DNA from: a virus
Taxonomy: Duplodnaviria; Caudoviricetes
Strand: one strand, 5' to 3'
IMG/VR virus record: IMGVR_UViG_3300031992_000029
Coordinates: 73,482-137,481 of that record
Length of the DNA stretch: 64,000 nucleotides
The notes under the pieces were generated by a model. It saw only the letters and a program-made list of their open reading frames with translations. It made no database searches and was not told the origin of the DNA. Below are positions 8,550 to 48,768 of the stretch, piece after piece (position 1 is the first letter of the stretch; each line of letters starts with the position of its first letter). Position numbers and translations under genes: made by a program.

Positions 8550-11500
8550 TTAAAAATCCTTATAGTATGAATTGAGTGTAAAGTATATACCATCCCTGGT
8601 AAACGATTTACAGAAAATAATATCTCCCTTTTTAATCGGATCTTTATTAAACACCCTATTAAATACTGTAAACCTACTTTCTTTACCACTGCCTATTGAC
8701 TTTGTTATAATCGAATACCCAAACTGTTTACCGTCTCTTTTTCTACAAAGAGGATAAATGTCCAAGACAAATAGTTTTTGCCTATCCTCATCTTTTCCTG
8801 TTGAATATCCGTAATACCCCATTAGTTCATAGAAATTCTGTATCTTAATTTTGACGTCAAGGTCGTCCATTCCTACAGACTTAACAGCATCTTCGTATTC
8901 TCTTAAAATCCCCATTGGGTCAAGGACAGTATATGATTTTGCCATATCTCCGTTCTTTGTCCTGTTAGTGGAATACTTTTTAATTATTCCCTCTATAATC
9001 AGGCCGTCAACCGTATCTATCTTTATCTTCTTTACAGCGCCTTTCTTCATAAGATTGCTATAAAAGAAGTCATATATTCTCAACAGCTCTCGCTGATTCC
9101 CAAACTCACTAAAGAAATCTATTTTAATAAGTATTCCAACTTGTCTTGAGTCTATACTCGACCCGGCGTCCATATGTGCTAATAGGTCTACAAATCTGTC
9201 ATATGTTCTCTCTTTCGACATATCATATAGCTCTTCCGCCAGGCCATCTCCCATATACTTTATAGAAGTTATTCCTTTAGCAATAATTTTTTTATCTTTA
9301 TCAAAGAAATAATGGCTCTTTGATAATCCCCATTTTGGCATTGTGATTTTAATACCGACTTTATTCGCGTATGCCGTTCCGTTCTTAATGTCATCTTCAT
9401 TGGCGGCATTATTTAAGAACGAGGTTATGAATTCGATCGGATAGTAGTGTCTGTAATACGCACATAAATATCCTAACAAGCAATATGCAATTGAGTGATT
9501 ATAACCAAACTGATAGCTTGCACTATCTTCAATAATCCGAAGAAACTCTTTCGCTTCTTCCTCTGCATCTGCTCTATCTTTTGAAGACTTACTACAGTAC
9601 CCCTCAAGTATTGACGGCATTGCCTTGTCTAATCTATCTTTTTGTTTACGACCGATAGCTCGCCTGACATTATCCGCCTCACTACCAGACAATCCACAGA
9701 TTTCCTGCAAAAATTTAATTGTGTCTTCTTGATAAATTAAGTACCCAAGGTTATCTTTAAGCAATCCGTCGATAATATCTGATGGGTTTTTATGTATCTT
9801 CCTTGCTAGTAGGTCATCTCTGTATGATGTGCCAGAAGGTCTTATACAGGCTGTCACAATCGACATATCGAAAATACTATGTGGCTCAAACCGTCTTAAA
9901 CACTCTGCCGCAAACGCACCTTCAAACTGAAATATACCAACCGGACTGCTTAACATATCGCTCCACACTGCTTGGTCATCCCAGTTTACTTCATGAGTTT
10001 TTGGATATGGAATTCCGATATACTCGCATGTATCTTTTATAACTTGCACCGTCTTTAATACTAAAAAATCATATTTTGCAAGACCGGTAAAATCATGTAC
10101 GTTCTCCATATCGAGCATCAGACATATATCGCCATCTTTATCAAAGCACCCAAAGTTATCGTCAAGCGTAATTGGACTAATAACCATACCTGCTGGATGC
10201 ACTGACTGAGAAACCTTTGTCCCAACAAGACCATCGAGATAATAAAATAGGTCTGGATACTTCTCCTTTGTCTTCTCTGGATTTGATGCGTATTCATCCT
10301 TGATCTCAGCTATATTCTTCAAAGACCACGGATTCCCTGCTTCCGAACCTGGATTTTCTTTTAGCCATTTCTTCGCCAGGTATCTTCCTACATCCTCGAT
10401 GACCTTTTTATCAAGGGCTGTGCCAAATGATGCTACCCTTGCTGTCTTTTCCTTACCAAACCTACCTACTATATATTCAAAGATTTTTGGTCTGTCCGGT
10501 TCGGTACAGTCTATGTCAATATCACCGATCTCCTTACGATCTTCATTAGCGAATCTTGAGAACACTGTATGCCACTGTTCCGGGTTAAGGTCTGTAATGT
10601 CTGTGACATATGCCGCTCTAGACCCTCCAACAGAACCTCTTGCTGGCCCGAGCGGTATTCCGTTATCCTTACACCAACAAGTAAGCTCACTCATTGAAAG
10701 CATGAATCCCATCATTTCAAGTTTCTTAAAAACCCTCATTTCTTCTGGAATTGCAGTCTCAAATCCAGCAACTTGTTCTTGCGTAATTATACCGCGCTCG
10801 ACCTTTTCCTTAAATTTTTCCTGCACAACCTGTTCGAACTTTTTCTCGTCTGCTTCACGGCTACCATATAGTATTGGATATTTTATAGATGTATCTAATT
10901 CGATATCCTCAACTAAGTCATACAACATATTAGTATTTTCGATAGCTGACATATACTCTTCGCTGCTTAGAGCGCCCTGAATCCTAAACATCTCGACTAA
11001 TTCGTCGTATGTTTTATATGTAAGGTCAAGAGAGTCTTCGTCGCCGTAAGATTTACCCTTTGACGCAATCAGTACTCTTCTGCATTCCTCTTTATATTTC
11101 GTAGAACTATGGGTGTCAGTCCCTGCTATAAGAGGCTTATTTAATTGCCTCGATAGCTTTGCGAGTTTCCTATTAAATGCAATCTGGTCAGGATGGTTAT
11201 GCCCTTGTACTTCAAGAAAATCGTACTTTTCGGCAAGTCTCATATACATAGGATGATCTTCTGGCAATCTGTTTAAAGGGGATGCTAAACAGGCGCTCGT
11301 AGATATTATGTTGTCAGAAATACCAAGAAATTCTTCGAACGTAATTCTATTGTTATAGTAGAAATGGTCTGGATCACATGATTTCGTAACGAGCATGTTA
11401 AGTTCTTTGACGCCGTCCATGTTTTTTGCCATCAAAACAGTATGATAATTATCTCTTACTTTTGGCTCAAGGTTTTCGGTCATGTAAATCTCTACAGAAT

Positions 11501-33389: not shown

Positions 33390-33459
33390 TATTCCTCCCT
33401 GTAATGTTTATTATTGTATTGTAATCGTTAAATAAAGTTCCTCGTTTGAGGATAACTGT

Positions 33460-33488
33460 ATTATATCACACTTTGTTTATTTTGTCAA
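33460..33488 (-). promoter_or_regulatory. SigmaA-type promoter
   Basis: TTGACA-17-TATAAT. Confidence 0.85.
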
Positions 33489-33587
33489 CACAAATTTATC
33501 GTTTACGTCATTTATTTTCCCAATTTGTTGTTATGAAATTAAGTTTTTGTTGATATTGAATACCAAAATTACTACTTTTTTAGGATT

Positions 33588-33914
33588 GTATTAGCCGAAT
33601 TCTTTCATATGGTTTGTGTAGTGCAATGCCTGGAAACCGGTACCAGCTTGGAATTTGAGGTAGCTTGGTATGGTCTCTTGTGTGGGTTGATTTCTCTGTG
33701 GTTTTCCTTGTGGTTTACCTGTAGGTGAATCCCTTTTGTGTTTCATTGGGTGGGACCTTCCGTTGGGCTGAGGTGTTTAACTATGCTTTGACTTGCGTCG
33801 CATCAGTGACTGCAGCTCTGTGTGTCAGGTGTCGCCGTCCCCACAATGTGATACTCTTGTTTACAACTAAGAGCGTTGCTAACAAATAACAACAATACAA
33901 TTCAGCTAAAATAC
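33588..33914 (-). ncRNA. Retron-like msr-msd ncRNA copy 1
   Basis: Inverted repeat TTAGCTGAATT / AATTCGGCTAA, G, hairpin, GCTCTT-AGTTGTAAAC-AAGAGT, ATCACATTGTGG. Confidence 0.8.
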
Positions 33915-34168
33915 TTACCTATTCTTTGATTACTCTATATATTACCGCAAGTAGTAATATAAATAATGTCACCAAAACACTACTGTGTATCTGCGACATC
34001 GGAGCTCTTTTGCTTTGACGTTTTCTTGTCCTGCTTGGCTTTCTGTCTCTCTTCCCTCTCAACAGCAAGCTGATGCTCAAGGCGAGCCATAACTCTTCTC
34101 ATTCTTGCAAACTCTGTGTTTCTGCATTTGTGTTTACTCATAAAATCCTCCTATGAATTTGATATTAC

Positions 34169-34429
34169 ACAAGGTAATCCGTAAAGATATTTTGCGTTTG
34201 CACGGAAACGCAAAAGCTCTTTATGCGCAATGCCATGCTTTTGAGTGCATGTCCGTAGGCTGCTACTGCCGGTTCGGTACGCGGTAAGACCATCGGTCGT
34301 CCGCGTTACTCGAACGGGCGTAGCACCTAGGCATGTCACTCAATAAGCGATGAGACGTACCAATTTCGCACTTCTGTTTACAACTAAAAGTAGGTTCTAT
34401 TTATGTAGACCTAATATTCATTACCTTGT
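34169..34429 (-). ncRNA. Retron-like msr-msd ncRNA copy 2
   Basis: Perfect 10-bp inverted repeat ACAAGGTAAT, G, hairpin, ACTTTT-AGTTGTAAAC-AGAAGT, long bulged msd hairpin. Confidence 0.85.
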
Positions 34430-34432
34430 TAA

Positions 34433-34480
34433 TGGTGCGGTTGGGATTCGAACCCGTTAGAACCGCTCCATCGCCGCACC
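34433..34480 (-). ncRNA. Mini tRNA-like element (acceptor plus T arm, ends CCA) directly 5' of ncRNA copy 2
   Basis: GGTGCGG...GGG-TTCGAAT-CCC-AA-CCGCACC-A. Confidence 0.5.
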
Positions 34481-34530
34481 GCGCCACACTTTTAGACCCG
34501 GAATCTATGGTAGTGGCTACCAATATCGGA

Positions 34531-34926
34531 TCATGATATCACATTGGAAATCCTGCGGATAATACCCTTGTCTGGAATGAATTCATCGTATCCATTCTCA
34601 AACTTGAGATATTTTACTCCGACAGGAGAATACTCTTTTGTCCATCCTGTGTCTGCATAGAACTCAATGAAGTCCTGGATATCTTCAATATCGTCCCATG
34701 TTGCAGATCTCATATCTGGATATGAATCAAGATCGAGATTTGAACATGTGAAATGCACAATCCTCTTATCCTTGTAGTCGATCTCGGATTCCACATCTTC
34801 GAAATCAAATCCATATGTATCTCCGGCATTTGTAATAATTTCATATCCGCCTGGCCTGCAGTCGACCTCGTCGTCTTCGATTTTCCTGTCAAAGATTAAT
34901 CCGAACTTCATGCATAATCCGATCAT
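34531..34926 (-). CDS. Hypothetical protein
   Basis: Overlaps the ATPase stop codon. Confidence 0.7.
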   Translation of the reverse strand: MIGLCMKFGLIFDRKIEDDEVDCRPGGYEIITNAGDTYGFDFEDVESEIDYKDKRIVHFTCSNLDLDSYPDMRSATWDDIEDIQDFIEFYADTGWTKEYSPVGVKYLKFENGYDEFIPDKGIIRRISNVIS

Positions 34927-36086
34927 ACGATATACCTCCTCACCTCATCATCACTCCATCTCGGAATTTTCTTAACTGAGATATCAATAACGCTCAGGTC
35001 TTTCATGTCTTTGTCGTCGTCGTAACAGTCGCCTCTACGACCGCTGTTACCATACGAAGACTTGAGAAGAAGTGCGATGCGATCCTTATCCACAGTAAGC
35101 GAGCCATCATCAGAAACGGAAACCGATGTAGACGGTACGCAAATACGAATATAATCCCTTCCGCCCGCTTCATTCGGTTCAGGTGCGATTAATTCTGTGT
35201 TTGTATAATCTGTTTCATCGTAAATATCTACGTTAAACTCGCCGGAATAATTGCTTCCGTCAGAAAGAGTTACAGATGCCTTCAGTCTGATGTCATCTTC
35301 CCTTGTAATGTTCATATCTTCAAGGCATTCTTCAAGGCTATAACCCTGATTGAGCTCGAAGACGAGAGCTCTGAGGATATCATAGTTGATATCAGAGACG
35401 GCAGAGAGCCTGATTACCCCGTCAATCTGTGAATAAAATTCAGGTTTTAATTTATCGGTAAGATACTCTCTGATTTCCTCTACTGAAGGATTTCCAAGGC
35501 TAAAATGATAATGGAATCTGCCGGGCCTATTCTTGAAGTATGTAGAAATCTTGTAGAGTTCGTTACAGGTGATAACGAACATCTTTTTCCCGCTGTCAAT
35601 TCCGTCGAAGAGCGGAAGCAGTTCGTCCTGAATACTCGATCTCTCTCCGTCATCATCGTCTGACCTCCCGTTCGAGAATGTCTTATCGAACTCATCGAAG
35701 ATGACAACAGCCTCCTGGTCGATAGATGAAATAAATCCAGCGATACCGGAGATCGCTCTTGACACAACGATTACAGGATATCCTCTCTTCACGCTTTCAA
35801 CCGCCAACATCTTAGCGAAGAGGGACTTACCGATACCTTTCTTACCAGAAAGAATAATACCGAAGTTCCTATCTGTCGCCTCGAATGACCTGAGCGCCTT
35901 TTCAACCTTCTTGTATCTGTCACCATAGATCTTCTCTTCTTTAACCTCAAGGTCAGTCCTTGAAGAGAGCGAGAATCCTGACATAGGGTTGAATTCCACC
36001 TCGTACGAGCCAGCAGGTAGCTTGTCGTATGTACGAAGTTCGTCGCCGTAAATCTGGTACCTTCCACCAGAGCACACAATGTTCAT
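34923..36086 (-). CDS. AAA+ ATPase
   Basis: GKKGIGKS, VIFDEFDK, ITCN, NRPGRFHY. Confidence 0.9.
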   Translation of the reverse strand: MNIVCSGGRYQIYGDELRTYDKLPAGSYEVEFNPMSGFSLSSRTDLEVKEEKIYGDRYKKVEKALRSFEATDRNFGIILSGKKGIGKSLFAKMLAVESVKRGYPVIVVSRAISGIAGFISSIDQEAVVIFDEFDKTFSNGRSDDDDGERSSIQDELLPLFDGIDSGKKMFVITCNELYKISTYFKNRPGRFHYHFSLGNPSVEEIREYLTDKLKPEFYSQIDGVIRLSAVSDINYDILRALVFELNQGYSLEECLEDMNITREDDIRLKASVTLSDGSNYSGEFNVDIYDETDYTNTELIAPEPNEAGGRDYIRICVPSTSVSVSDDGSLTVDKDRIALLLKSSYGNSGRRGDCYDDDKDMKDLSVIDISVKKIPRWSDDEVRRYIV

Positions 36087-36124
36087 AAATTTCCTCCTAT
36101 AGTGTATTGTTTTTTTTGGGATAC

Positions 36125-36416
36125 AACAAGGTAATCCATAAAGTCGATAGTGTTTAAAGAGACTTTATGCGCCATGCCTCTGTGTCGTAATAAACCATCC
36201 TTACTGCATGTAAATAACTCGTCCTGGTCCGAGGAAATTTTTCTAGAGGTCGACCGGAGGGAGGCTTCGAGGAAAAATTTCTAAGGACTCGGACGGTTAT
36301 TTACTGCAAGTAAGTGTTGGTTATTACGATACGAAGGACGCATCACAATTTCATACTCCTGTTTACAACTAGAAGCGGGTGTAAATATGTATAACCCAAT
36401 TTACATTAGCCTTGTT
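36125..36416 (-). ncRNA. Retron-like msr-msd ncRNA copy 3
   Basis: Inverted repeat AACAAGG(C)TAAT, G, hairpin, GCTTCT-AGTTGTAAAC-AGGAGT, long bulged msd hairpin. Confidence 0.85.
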
Positions 36417-36436
36417 TTATATTTTGATTTTTACAG

Positions 36437-36679
36437 TTACCAACAATGATTGAAGCTGAGATTAAATGCTTCGTCTCCTGTTTTGAATGCTTGATTTATT
36501 TTACCTAACGTTATATTTGCGTCTTGCGTTGTTTTAAAACGTTTTATGGGCATCCCTTTGTATATTCCGTTGAAATACCCAAAAGCCACTATGTCATATC
36601 CAACGTCGCCTAGGTCTGGACATATCTTGAACTTATAATCTTCATACTCTAATGCTCCTTTATCATAATAAACTATCAT
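36437..36679 (-). CDS. Hypothetical protein
   Basis: RBS directly after ncRNA copy 4. Confidence 0.65.
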   Translation of the reverse strand: MIVYYDKGALEYEDYKFKICPDLGDVGYDIVAFGYFNGIYKGMPIKRFKTTQDANITLGKINQAFKTGDEAFNLSFNHCW

Positions 36680-36694
36680 TAATTACCTCCTAAG

Positions 36695-36970
36695 AAACAT
36701 AGCAATCCGTAAGGTCATGAGGTCCTCCACCGAATAACCTTATGCGCCATGCAGGTAGTGGAGCTCCTCCTGATCTGCTGCATCGCCCTGACGGGTTCGT
36801 CGTGATGAGAGTTCGGGTGATAGCCCGAATCTCTGAACGACGATCCGTCGTTGGCGTGCAGCAAATTCGGAGGCGGTCCGCTACGAAATTTGCATAAACA
36901 ATTTCATACTCCTGTTCACAACTAAGAGCAGGTTTAGATATGTATAAACCTAATATTCATTGCCATGTTT
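36695..36970 (-). ncRNA. Retron-like msr-msd ncRNA copy 4
   Basis: Inverted repeat AAACATRGCAAT, G, hairpin, GCTCTT-AGTTGTGAAC-AGGAGT, long bulged msd hairpin. Confidence 0.85.
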
Positions 36971-36979
36971 TGTAATCGA

Positions 36980-37396
36980 TTACATGTTGATAGCCGTCAT
37001 AACTTTGTCAGTCGCACGATCAATAATTCTTAAATAGTCACCACCCATTTCATCGATGATTTCAGTTACCAATGTTCTAGGATCGTCATCAGCAAATAGT
37101 TCTGTATCGTAGTTAGAATCGACATCGTCGTATGTAACGAAGTCAGACATGTTCATCTCTATTTCAACATCGACATCGTCTCTGATAAGTTCCCAGACGG
37201 AGTCTCTATCCATTTCCGGCACCGCCCTAGCTAACATTACATAACACTGCACATCTGAAAAATATTCCTCTAAATATCTTATAAAGCACGGAATATCAAC
37301 AGAAAAATATCTGTCGCCGTTATACTTGACTATCATTCTTTTTCTCCTTAAACACGAAATCAAAAGCCATTTTAGCTCCAATGAAAAGAGCAACAA
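36980..37396 (-). CDS. Acidic hypothetical protein (start probably MIVKY)
   Basis: ORF track. Confidence 0.6.
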   Translation of the reverse strand: MLLFSLELKWLLISCLRRKRMIVKYNGDRYFSVDIPCFIRYLEEYFSDVQCYVMLARAVPEMDRDSVWELIRDDVDVEIEMNMSDFVTYDDVDSNYDTELFADDDPRTLVTEIIDEMGGDYLRIIDRATDKVMTAINM

Positions 37397-40913: not shown

Positions 40914-41060
40914 CTCTACGACGCCACTATTACACGAAAGGAGCAAAAAACAGAAAGGATATACAGCACTCTATACTAAGGCAAACACAGCGTGGCGAGA
41001 CTGTGTTAAAAGCAAAAAGTAGCCAAATCTTGCGGATTTGTCAAAGCAAAATCCAGCGAT

Positions 41061-41103
41061 TTTAGAACCTTTTAGAACCGTTTAGAACCATCAAGGTTCT
41101 AAA
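41061..41103. repeat. Three direct TTTAGAACC repeats plus one inverted copy
   Basis: TTTAGAACCT TTTAGAACCG TTTAGAACCA TCAA GGTTCTAAA. Confidence 0.75.
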
Positions 41104-41246: not shown

Positions 41247-41480
41247 TTCCAAAAGAAACAATAGAATCAGCATATGTTTTAAAGCTCAGAGATCCTGATT
41301 GTGATCAGCTGGAGGCAGCTCCTGGGATATCTGAATTGGTAGTGGCAGCTGGCTCTTGAGGGCCCAGATCCTGCTGAATTCATTCGGCGGGCGGGTCTTG
41401 CCGTTCCCACAAAGTGATACCGTCGTTTACAACTGGCGGCACAGATTAAAATCTGTAATACATTGCTATTGTTTTGGAAG
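41247..41480 (-). ncRNA. Retron-like msr-msd ncRNA copy 5
   Basis: Inverted repeat TTCCAAAA..AACAATAG.AAT, G, ACAGAT-TTTA-ATCTGT, GCCGCC-AGTTGTAAAC-GACGGT, ATCACTTTGTGG. Confidence 0.82.
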
Positions 41481-47049: not shown

Positions 47050-47285
47050 AATATATCCTCCGTGTCGAAATATTCCTCCTCCTCTTCGTGAAGGAGTTCG
47101 ATCCATCTTACGCTGAAGTACCACGGGATACCTTCAAGATGGACAGTTTTCCCGCTTCCGCTTACGCTTGATATTTTGAATGTTTTGTTATCATACCTAT
47201 CCATCGGGTTGACCCATCCTGGTTCATCATGTCTTATTGCCGAAGGCTTGTGCACAATAACAGTGTCTCCAGCTTTGTATTTCAC
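47037..47285 (-). CDS. KOW/SH3-like array protein (first of the array, GTGA overlap with the RT stop)
   Basis: KYKAGDTV...EYFDTEDILCLM. Confidence 0.8.
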   Translation of the reverse strand: MKYKAGDTVIVHKPSAIRHDEPGWVNPMDRYDNKTFKISSVSGSGKTVHLEGIPWYFSVRWIELLHEEEEEYFDTEDILCLM

Positions 47286-48463
47286 GACACAGACACACCA
47301 CCTCTCAGATCGTTTTTGATCTCAGATACGATATCCATGTTGAACTTCTTACTGAGATGTTCAACAAGTGCGCTGATAGACTCTCTCTCTATCATCATGT
47401 AGTAGCTACGATGACCTTCGAGAACCTGGACATCGTGGAAATCCCACTGGATTCCATTCCTTTTGTCCATTGCGTAGTTCGACAGCATTGCCGTGAACTG
47501 CTTTCTTCTCTTGTGTCCGATAGTGATCTCGTTGTTTGCGTTAAGCATAACGCCGAGATTCCAATTAGAACCTGCGGAAGAACCGTAGCGTGTTTTCTTC
47601 GACTTGATCGTGAACGGTGCGTCGAAGCTGGAGAGTGTATCTACGATGAACGCCTCGGCTTCCTTGTAGTTGAAATCGTATCTACACGATACAAGAAAGT
47701 CGTCTGCGTACCTTGTGTATACACAGTAATTTTCCACTTCGTTCCCATCTTTATCATGATATTTGAAGTTTCTGAACCCGTTGTAGAGTTTGAAGTCAAC
47801 GGGTATCATAATAATGTTAGTGATAATGGGGCTGATTGGGGTTCCCTGAGGGAGTCCACCGTCAAGGAATGCCAGCTCAAGAGCCTTTTCAAGCTCCGCT
47901 CGCCCAACATCATCGAGACAAACCTGACTGAATGGGAAAATCCACTGAAGCATATCCATAACGTACTTCAGTGTTGTGCTGCCAAAGAAGTTAGATAAAT
48001 CAAACTTGGCAAACCATTTCGATCCATTCCTCTGGTGTCTTTTGATCGAGTCAATGGTTGACCTTTTCTTGATGTACGCAAATGCAGAAGTGTGATACAG
48101 GGCATGACAATCTTCCTCAAAGATTGCCTTCAGATTCCTGAGTGCCGCCTTAAGCTCCTCATTAGGAGCGTCGATCTTTCTGAGGCCACCTGACTTCTTA
48201 GGAATGTAGAACTCTGAATACAGTTCTTTTCTCGGAACCTTCCTGAGCTCCTCTGTCTGCTCATTGAACTGTTTCAGCTTATTTATGATGTTGTCGATAT
48301 CGACGAGGCCCTGAAATTTTTCGCCGATATATTCCACTTCGTATGTTCTTGTGTTTGTCTCGTTCGAGACATACAGCGGAACCTTTGAATCATTTCCAAA
48401 AAGAAATTCCTCAAGTGTCATCTGGTGGTATGCAGGTGACTGCGGTACAGTTACATAAAACAT
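47282..48463 (-). CDS. Retron-type reverse transcriptase
   Basis: IPKKSGGLRKIDAP, AFAYIKKRS..SIKRH (region X-like), KFDLSNFF, LPQGTPISP, YTRYADD, NLGV (VTG-like); no maturase or endonuclease domain; ncRNA directly upstream. Confidence 0.92.
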   Translation of the reverse strand: MFYVTVPQSPAYHQMTLEEFLFGNDSKVPLYVSNETNTRTYEVEYIGEKFQGLVDIDNIINKLKQFNEQTEELRKVPRKELYSEFYIPKKSGGLRKIDAPNEELKAALRNLKAIFEEDCHALYHTSAFAYIKKRSTIDSIKRHQRNGSKWFAKFDLSNFFGSTTLKYVMDMLQWIFPFSQVCLDDVGRAELEKALELAFLDGGLPQGTPISPIITNIIMIPVDFKLYNGFRNFKYHDKDGNEVENYCVYTRYADDFLVSCRYDFNYKEAEAFIVDTLSSFDAPFTIKSKKTRYGSSAGSNWNLGVMLNANNEITIGHKRRKQFTAMLSNYAMDKRNGIQWDFHDVQVLEGHRSYYMMIERESISALVEHLSKKFNMDIVSEIKNDLRGGVSVS

Positions 48464-48473
48464 CTTTTCGTCC

Positions 48474-48768
48474 TTTCGTATTCAACATACAGTTTCTGGG
48501 AGGCGCAGATCCTGGCGCCGGCCGTAACTTAAGCTCGCTGTGCTGGATGTAGTCGTCGATTGGATGTCCATCAAATATAGGAATGGTAGATATATTTGAT
48601 ATTTTCGTGGTTTGGAATTTATGGATGACGACTTCCCGAGGGCCGGCCATCCGGCGGAATCACTGGAGAGATGCATTGCCGCGTGGAGGTGGGTTCCTCT
48701 TTCCACACAAGGTGATACCGTCGTTTACAACTGACGGCACAGACAAATGTCTGTAATACAATACGATT
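48474..48768 (-). ncRNA. Retron-like msr-msd ncRNA copy 6 (cis to the RT)
   Basis: Inverted repeat TCGTATT/AATACGA, G, ACAGAC-ATTT-GTCTGT, GCCGTC-AGTTGTAAAC-GACGGT, msd hairpin GCCGGCC..GTCGTC..ATCAAATATA/TATATTTGAT..GACGAC..GGCCGGC. Confidence 0.88.

Follow-up and report, generated by a model that had tools for sequence, protein, structure and literature searches.

One retron-type reverse transcriptase and several predicted template RNAs in a large phage family, including a subfamily with long, conserved, imperfect hairpins

The DNA analyzed here (the window) is a stretch of 64,000 nucleotides, positions 73,482 to 137,481 or the right-hand 64 kb, of the virus record IMGVR_UViG_3300031992_000029 (Duplodnaviria; Caudoviricetes), which is 137,481 bp long and rated complete. 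In the region of interest, all genes are encoded on the minus strand and comprise dozens of small open reading frames (ORFs), tRNA genes, and a few larger genes. Between them we found six intergenic elements that follow one common plan and are read on the minus strand, together with a gene for a retron-type reverse transcriptase (RT). Retrons are bacterial defence systems with one RNA per enzyme. In the present study, we describe the six elements as predicted retron-type template RNAs and focus on three of them (copies 2 to 4), which carry long imperfect hairpins and appear to constitute a subfamily of their own.

From 5' to 3', each element consists of an arm (a1) ending in G, hairpin 1, hairpin 2 with the loop AGTTGTRAAC, a block of the form GT(A/G)nn(A/G)nnTTG, a variable stretch of 130-250 nt, and a 3' arm (a2) complementary to a1. 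These closing arms are present in all six copies and are 100% paired in the orthologues described below. In retron terms, the msr hairpins 1 and 2 are followed in all six copies by an msd region, which forms a long hairpin only in copies 2 to 4. A motif scan of the whole 137-kb genome gave these six copies and no more. Only copy 6 is contiguous with the RT gene; copies 1 to 5 are located 6-15 kb downstream of it. In searches of Rfam, only tRNAs scored above the gathering threshold in the window, and no meaningful match was obtained at E<=5 over positions 33400-37100.

A first-pass annotation, made from the sequence of the window alone, had divided the elements into two noncoding RNA (ncRNA) subfamilies, and this division holds, as copies 2 to 4 (B-type) and copies 1, 5, and 6 (A-type) differ in their blocks. 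In the B-type copies, hairpin 2 is followed by ...AGT(A/G)(T/C)GAAATTG, and all three copies have a GCAT(G/T)GCGCATAA block, a short terminal hairpin, and, 3' of this hairpin, the a2 arm (A/T)(C/T)GGATT(A/G)C; the shared GAAATTG, the 3' block, and the terminal hairpin had all been named in that annotation. The B-type layout is a1 with the invariant G, hairpin 1 with an ACATA loop, hairpin 2, the TGAAATTG block, a long imperfect hairpin, the ATGC...GCGCATAA block, the terminal hairpin, and a2. The A-type copies share GTATCAC(A/T/C)TTGTG (GTATCACnTTGTG), in agreement with the ATCAC-TTGTG noted before, and their templates are branched and weakly structured.

Table 1. Positions of the predicted RNAs, their parts, and neighbouring features in the window (R1, score with the covariance model of the 5' module)
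Feature	Position	Strand	Remarks
Copy 1, A-type	33575-33905	-	Fast-evolving template; R1 49.9 bits
Copy 2, B-type	34160-34432	-	Inner 87 nt of long hairpin (34250-34336) near-invariant in relatives; R1 42.8 bits
Copy 2, long hairpin	34234-34352	-	51 bp in 119 nt; 12 interruptions
Copy 3, B-type	36118-36418	-	a2 ends ~40 nt before AAA ATPase start codon; R1 51.9 bits
Copy 3, long hairpin	36170-36347	-	67 bp in 178 nt; 16 interruptions
Copy 4, B-type	36695-36972	-	R1 52.6 bits
Copy 4, 5' module	36885-36972	-	
Copy 4, long hairpin	36755-36884	-	49 bp in 130 nt; 9 interruptions
Copy 4, 3' part	36695-36754	-	GCATGGCGCATAA block, terminal hairpin, a2
Copy 5, A-type	41258-41476	-	R1 55.5 bits
Copy 6, A-type	48470-48768	-	Directly upstream of RT; a1/a2, G, hairpins 1 and 2, GTATCACCTTG block; R1 54.7 bits
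Retron-type RT	47282-48463	-	393 amino acids (aa); sole RT of the 137-kb genome
AAA+ ATPase	34923-36086	-	387 aa; immediately downstream of copy 3; Pfam AAA 6.1e-13; phrog_2376 9e-102
tRNA-like element	34433-34530	-	Abuts a1 of copy 2; acceptor plus T-arm minihelix ending in CCA
80-aa ORF	36437-36679	-	Between copies 4 and 3; 0, 1, or 2 times in close relatives
53-aa basic ORF	33980-34141	-	Downstream of copy 2; kept in close relatives
131-aa ORF	34531-34926	-	
138-aa ORF	36980-37396	-	
Promoter	33460-33488	-	Perfect extended sigma-70, TTGACA-17-TG-TATAAT
Direct repeats	~41060-41100	-	Three GGTTCTAAA repeats

For comparison, we used 51 loci of related viruses, with RTs 53-63% identical, and a further 49 found in metagenome-assembled genomes of gut Clostridia and others, a sample of about 100 related contigs that were picked for carrying the RT; L-numbers (L002, L038, L121, etc.) are labels of related loci or contigs. 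An RNA of the same plan lies upstream of every RT in the related loci. The G after a1 is present in all 19 sequences of an alignment, and hairpin 2 has compensatory changes at seven of its nine pairs. The loop of hairpin 2 is not kept outside this phage lineage, and therefore a covariance model of the 5' module (R1) was used for the search. It matched 158 times in the viral loci and 68 times in the genome loci, always on the RT strand. A locus typically has a single match upstream of its RT and one to four matches on the downstream side; whole related records hold two to five such RNAs each. For most of the matches, an a2 complementary to a1 was found 200-350 nt downstream. The arm sequences are diverse (e.g., CATGTAAT/ATTACATG, CTATGCAAT/ATTGCATAG, and ATTTGCAGT/ACTGCAGAT), with many covarying pairs across the approximately 100 relatives. 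Judged from these sequences, the set of RNAs has the defining RNA anatomy of retrons; the covariation in a1/a2 and hairpin 2, the invariant G, and the sole retron-type RT bear out the earlier proposal that they are retron-type msr-msd RNAs.

The RT matched Pfam RVT_1 (3.5e-19), the PADLOC models RT_II-A (3.6e-42) and RT_I-A (3.5e-34), and the solved Ec83 RT in PDB (5e-17). Its best hidden Markov model matches are all retron RTs, those to group II intron RTs (4e-24) and Drt2 (2e-8) being far weaker, and the YxDD motif is intact as YADD. In the alignment to the Ec83 RT, SIKRH lies over NAKIH and NLG over VTG; across 10 family members, NLG does not vary and region X retains its KRH. An N-terminal extension (residues 1-75; YHQMTLEE ... 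NTRTYE) is likewise kept across the family and has no family match. Because of the NLG and KRH motif variants and this extension, we refer to the predicted enzyme only as retron-type and assign it to no described retron type. A second RT for the second RNA subfamily was not found in the 137-kb genome.

The first-pass annotation had described the centres of copies 2 to 4 as regularly bulged hairpins of about 60-75 bp that are unrelated in sequence. Long, interrupted hairpins were indeed found, although two of the three are shorter than had been stated (Table 1); the longest perfect run is <=10 bp in the window and <=15 bp, mostly 8-12 bp, in relatives. Folded as DNA in the cDNA (complementary DNA) sense, as that annotation had suggested, copies 2, 3, and 4 gave z = -8.6, -7.3, and -9.3, respectively, and 0 of 200 shuffles were as good. 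Local alignments of the centres with one another scored 8-11, which is the level of shuffled sequences (mean about 9), whereas the 5' modules of the same copies scored 35-46 (shuffles about 9), so that the centres are unrelated as claimed. Regular bulging was confirmed for copy 2, in which the interruptions are more evenly spaced than random (P=0.004); it is marginal in copy 4 (P=0.035) and was not supported in copy 3 (P=0.35).

Closer relatives were reached through homologues of the AAA ATPase encoded next to copy 3, the protein being 87-89% identical in L121, L122, and L126-L129 and 98% identical in L123-L125. Orthologues of copies 4, 3, 2, and 1 occur in all of them in the same order. In alignments of six or seven orthologues, the structure of the window was kept in 93-96% of cells, compared with 35-46% when the partners were slid. 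Across the three RNAs, eight, five, and six pairs are changed on both sides, and for the orthologue sets of copies 2 to 4 the covariation score exceeded all 500 shuffles. The shape of the long hairpins is, as far as these alignments indicate, under selection.

The neighbouring genes of these relatives are 82-92% identical in DNA to those of the window. The corresponding values are 98-100% for the inner 87 nt of the copy 2 hairpin, 92-99% for the inner part of the copy 3 hairpin, and 91-98% for the copy 4 hairpin in four relatives; in L121 the copy 4 hairpin is 71% identical, its inner part having been replaced between two flanking modules that are near-identical. The bulges stay at the same positions in orthologues from phages whose genes differ by 8-18%. 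As the orthologous hairpins are more conserved than the neighbouring genes, their sequence is not free, and of the earlier idea that shape is conserved while sequence is free, only the part on shape stands. For the outer stem of copy 3 there are two alleles, connected by several compensatory changes; the way they are distributed does not match ATPase similarity, which suggests recombination. We regard each long hairpin as a specific conserved cassette, bulges included, that is exchanged on occasion.

The A-type template of copy 1 behaves in the opposite way: it is only 66-69% identical to the window in the orthologues of L121 and L126-L129 and evolves faster than the flanking genes. A-type templates are also C-rich and T-poor in the RNA sense, with C at about 0.28-0.30 against 0.17 for the strand.

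The B-type signature, namely an ACATA loop in hairpin 1, TGAAA(T/A)TG after hairpin 2, a long hairpin, an ATGC-containing block, a terminal hairpin, and an a2 of the form ...GGAT(T/C)(A/G)C, recurs across genomes. B-type RNAs with unrelated hairpins were found in L038 and L048, with a tRNA-Ile gene directly after each (L038 13256-13331; L048 14117-14193), and in L003, L006, and L007, directly upstream of AAA ATPase homologues; in the latter three, a large insertion in hairpin 1 caused R1 to miss them. Long hairpins of 27-47 bp, again unrelated in sequence, are present in L052 and its group, L039, L080, and L095, and in the L023/24/26/52 group the hairpins show compensatory changes while the msr is 100% identical. 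Most RNAs of the wider family have branched, weakly structured templates like those of copies 1, 5, and 6.

The types of base pairs in the long hairpins are informative about the molecule that folds. G-U accounts for 2 of 163 pairs in the three long hairpins of the window and for 8 of 345 in ten long hairpins of relatives (10/508 together), compared with 11 of 140 in the msr hairpins and a1/a2 arms of the six window copies (Fisher P=0.008 for the window, P=0.0016 with the relatives). A G-U pair in RNA becomes a C-A mismatch in the cDNA, and hence avoidance of G-U is what would be expected if the hairpin must also fold as DNA. The single-base bulges are biased as well: in the RNA sense, 12 of 17 in the window and 14 of 19 in relatives are A (26/36 in total), and bulged A outnumbers bulged T by 26:2 (P=3e-6). 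Because the bulges are strand-asymmetric, selection acts on one strand, either on RNA with a bulged A or on cDNA with a bulged T. The pair types and the bulge bias are thus indirect signs that fit a hairpin also folding as DNA; the bulge bias by itself does not settle whether RNA or DNA is the functional form.

We propose, with a probability of about 0.6 for the explanation as a whole, that copies 2 to 4 represent a distinct B-type subfamily of retron-style msr-msd RNAs, and that these RNAs are copied into hairpin DNAs acting as specific protein ligands. By analogy with known retrons, the single phage RT would bind the shared msr hairpins in trans and use the 2'-OH of the G behind a1 as its primer. 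Synthesis would begin at the base preceding a2, run through the terminal hairpin, then the conserved block, then the long hairpin, and stop near GAAATTG; the product would be a branched msDNA (multicopy single-stranded DNA) of about 170-200 nt. Its DNA part would form the long hairpin anew, with T as the bulged base. The frequent interruptions, which hold perfect helices at <=10 bp, should ease copying by the RT and help to avoid nucleases that act on double-stranded RNA and palindromes. Each hairpin is specific and conserved, and different cassettes stand side by side; therefore, the most likely, if more speculative, role of the DNAs or RNA-DNA hybrids is that of sequence- and shape-specific ligands of particular proteins during infection, as decoy, sponge, or scaffold.

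Several points weigh against this proposal. Every step past the RNA fold is taken from retron biology. Copies 2 to 4 lie 10-14 kb from the RT, and their use in trans is an assumption. The RT scored 161.7 bits with the NCBIfam retron St85 RT model, below the cut-off of 235, and in place of the canonical VTG and NAxxH it has NLG and SIKRH (AVKRH in relatives). The neighbouring proteins tested include no known effector or toxin family. The pair-count controls, resting on 6-7 closely related sequences, are supportive and not decisive. Pairing that is Watson-Crick only could derive in part from an origin of the hairpins as DNA inverted repeats, and the bulged A could serve a role at the level of RNA rather than DNA.

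If the B-type RNAs are copied as proposed, one enzyme with many templates might act as a factory for a panel of hairpin DNAs, each neutralizing a different host protein and with cassettes swapped as hosts change, that is, a DNA-based counter-defence by reverse transcription. Such a host protein could be a nuclease or a repair protein, a sensor of a defence system, or a retron effector of the host for which an msDNA of that retron normally serves as antidote. We consider this extension to be rather unlikely, albeit worth stating. In any case, a large gut-phage family keeps a retron-type enzyme and several template RNAs with no recognizable toxin, which points to small DNAs made by the virus for its own use and would represent a new role of reverse transcription in phage-host conflict. 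The three defined hairpins (119-178 nt), with their predicted start and stop points, are concrete objects for testing, and for the production of DNA with retrons, a natural RT that takes many templates in trans, long structured inserts included, is of practical interest.

The alternative that fares best places the function of copies 2 to 4 in the RNA: they would be structured leaders or processing sites for the downstream genes, with only copy 6, or none, being reverse-transcribed. No promoter-like site was found before copies 2 to 4, and these RNAs are therefore segments of a longer transcript; they belong to a long early transcription unit of the minus strand, beside small ORFs, the AAA ATPase gene, and the tRNA-like element. 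The only strong promoter is located after copy 1, before a 206-aa gene (Table 1). The lack of promoters of their own is what leaders would show, and the a2 arms of copies 2 to 4 end 3-40 nt before a strong ribosome-binding site. A bulged A is also a common protein-binding motif in RNA. In a variant resembling type VI retrons, whose hybrid RNA has a template and a repressed ORF (10.1101/2025.10.22.683967), RT action on the hybrid RNA would switch on translation of the downstream ORF. Against a role in RNA alone, every copy has the full retron anatomy, which a leader would not need, and G-U pairs are nearly absent from the long hairpins but tolerated in the msr helices. Moreover, the ribosome-binding sites are not sequestered in minimum-free-energy folds, and in relatives the ncRNAs often precede tRNAs rather than ORFs. 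We therefore hold this alternative to be unlikely.

Homologues of the 206-aa gene also follow an ncRNA in L037, L038, and L048.

A phage-borne defence function (superinfection exclusion), in which ncRNA and msDNA keep a downstream protein in check as toxin-antitoxin pairs sharing one RT, can also be considered. The nearest relatives of the RT are defence retrons, and the candidates for such a protein would be the AAA ATPase with the 131-aa protein, the 80-aa protein, or the 53-aa protein. In the window and in seven relatives (L002/3/5/6/7/8 and L080), an ncRNA ends 22-40 nt before the start of the ATPase gene, and the ATPase has weak matches to nSTAND3, PDC-S73, and IetA. However, its fold is a classical one like that of Bcs1, YjoB, and proteasomal ATPases, with a beta domain at the N terminus and an acidic, beta-rich domain at the C terminus, and its family (phrog_2376; >3800 homologues) is very large, occurs mostly in phages, and is no known retron effector class. 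As a protein-remodelling AAA+ ATPase of a family so broad in phages, it was rejected as a retron effector. The small ORFs have no family match, the 80-aa ORF occurs 0-2 times in close relatives, and the ncRNAs of many relatives precede tRNA genes or another ncRNA instead of a protein gene. The presence of the RT in about 100 related contigs also counts against a defence function, in a sample that was itself selected for the RT. Taken together, a defence system of this kind seems improbable.

The bulged hairpin DNAs might instead soak up the host mismatch-repair protein MutS and thereby raise mutation or recombination rates. The predicted cDNA hairpins have 9-16 mismatches or single-base loops each, and most of the single-base loops are unpaired T, a classic ligand of MutS. 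Maas et al. reportedly found, in 1994 and 1996, that mismatched msDNAs titrate MutS in E. coli, and this titration is said to have been seen on over-expression and not to be an established natural function. We think such a role highly unlikely here, as a generic sponge would need neither three different, individually conserved sequences nor conserved flanking blocks, and no benefit to a lytic phage is evident. We consider it equally unlikely that the interruptions have no function of their own and only prevent cruciforms or SbcCD-type cutting of a genomic inverted repeat, or reflect decay of old palindromes; protection from palindrome-cutting nucleases had also been raised in the first-pass annotation. 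Long perfect palindromes are unstable in bacteria and the perfect runs here are short, but protection or decay at the level of double-stranded DNA is strand-symmetric and would not yield 26 A over 2 T on one strand. In addition, the bulge positions are invariant in orthologues, and the interruptions of copy 2 are spaced more evenly than at random.

The predicted RNAs resemble those of classical retrons (Ec86/Eco1, Ec83, and Ec78 of type I-A; St85/Sen2 of type II-A; Mx162/Sa163) in the a1/a2 repeats, the G ending a1, the msr stem-loops followed by an msd stem-loop, the imperfect msd stems, and the presence of one ncRNA directly upstream of the RT. The msDNAs of Mx162/Sa163 are near the length of 170-200 nt predicted here. 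Unlike classical retrons, one RT is accompanied by six ncRNAs, which fall into two subfamilies and of which five are located at a distance of 6-15 kb, in the early/accessory region of a large phage, with no recognizable effector and with ncRNAs interleaved with tRNA genes; the RT also departs from classical retron RTs in having NLG/SIKRH for VTG/NAxxH and a 75-aa N-terminal extension. In type VI retrons (Retron-Vpa2), the template for reverse transcription and an ORF are on one hybrid RNA (10.1101/2025.10.22.683967), and a template with a downstream small ORF on one transcript is also seen here; in contrast, the ribosome-binding sites of the window are not visibly sequestered, there is no helix-turn-helix partner, and there are several templates, many of which precede tRNAs or ncRNAs in the family. 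The hairpin DNAs, here predicted from the RNAs alone, would resemble the MutS-titrating msDNAs of E. coli in having mismatches or loops and in being produced by a retron RT in many copies, but would comprise three specific, conserved hairpins in a phage. As in phage tRNA arrays, ncRNA genes are clustered in the early/accessory region of large phages; those arrays encode functional tRNAs, which can rescue infection from retron Eco7 or PARIS (PMC11555353, PMC11464382), whereas the genes here encode retron-style templates.

Our literature searches gave no description of a natural phage retron in which one RT is accompanied by several ncRNAs; clades of retron-like RTs from viruses have been reported, without RNAs, in a survey (PMC13681634). 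New here are the delimitation of the long-hairpin subfamily in several genomes, the comparison of orthologues, the Watson-Crick-only pairing, and the A-bulge signature.

The tRNA-like element between the 131-aa ORF and copy 2 is a non-coding stretch of about 100 nt with the minihelix GGGTTCGAATCCC...CCGCACCA. In six close relatives its mean column identity is 93%, above that of the neighbouring genes, and its fold energy is not unusual. ARAGORN called no tRNA in it, and it was therefore rejected as a genuine tRNA. In relatives, ncRNAs are interleaved with real tRNA genes (also in L080 11491-13567 and L095 11321-13070), and one tRNA-Ser ends 4 nt before an ncRNA. The ncRNAs may be released by tRNA-processing enzymes, with the tRNA-like element serving as a processing signal.

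Two other origins or uses of the templates were examined and rejected. A diversity-generating retroelement does not fit, since copies of the templates elsewhere in the 137-kb genome are only chance matches of 13-32 nt, with no variable-repeat-like copy, and the RT scores as retron-type. For host mimicry, examined with the copy 2 hairpin only, a sample of 401 Clostridia genomes yielded matches of 15-31 nt, which is no more than expected by chance.

The two proteins of 131 and 138 aa encoded next to the RNAs have no family match; they are strongly acidic, as is also the case for anti-restriction proteins that mimic DNA. The 80-aa ORF is absent in L121, where copies 4 and 3 are in tandem (9361-10001), and is duplicated in L128 (3157-3663). 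In L126, an IS605-family OrfB/TnpB gene (1445-2536) is inserted about 0.8 kb upstream of the copy 4 orthologue. Finally, the three direct GGTTCTAAA repeats belong to an ORF-free stretch of 300 nt after copy 5 that is followed by a promoter-like TTGACA, and this stretch may be an operator or an origin-like region.

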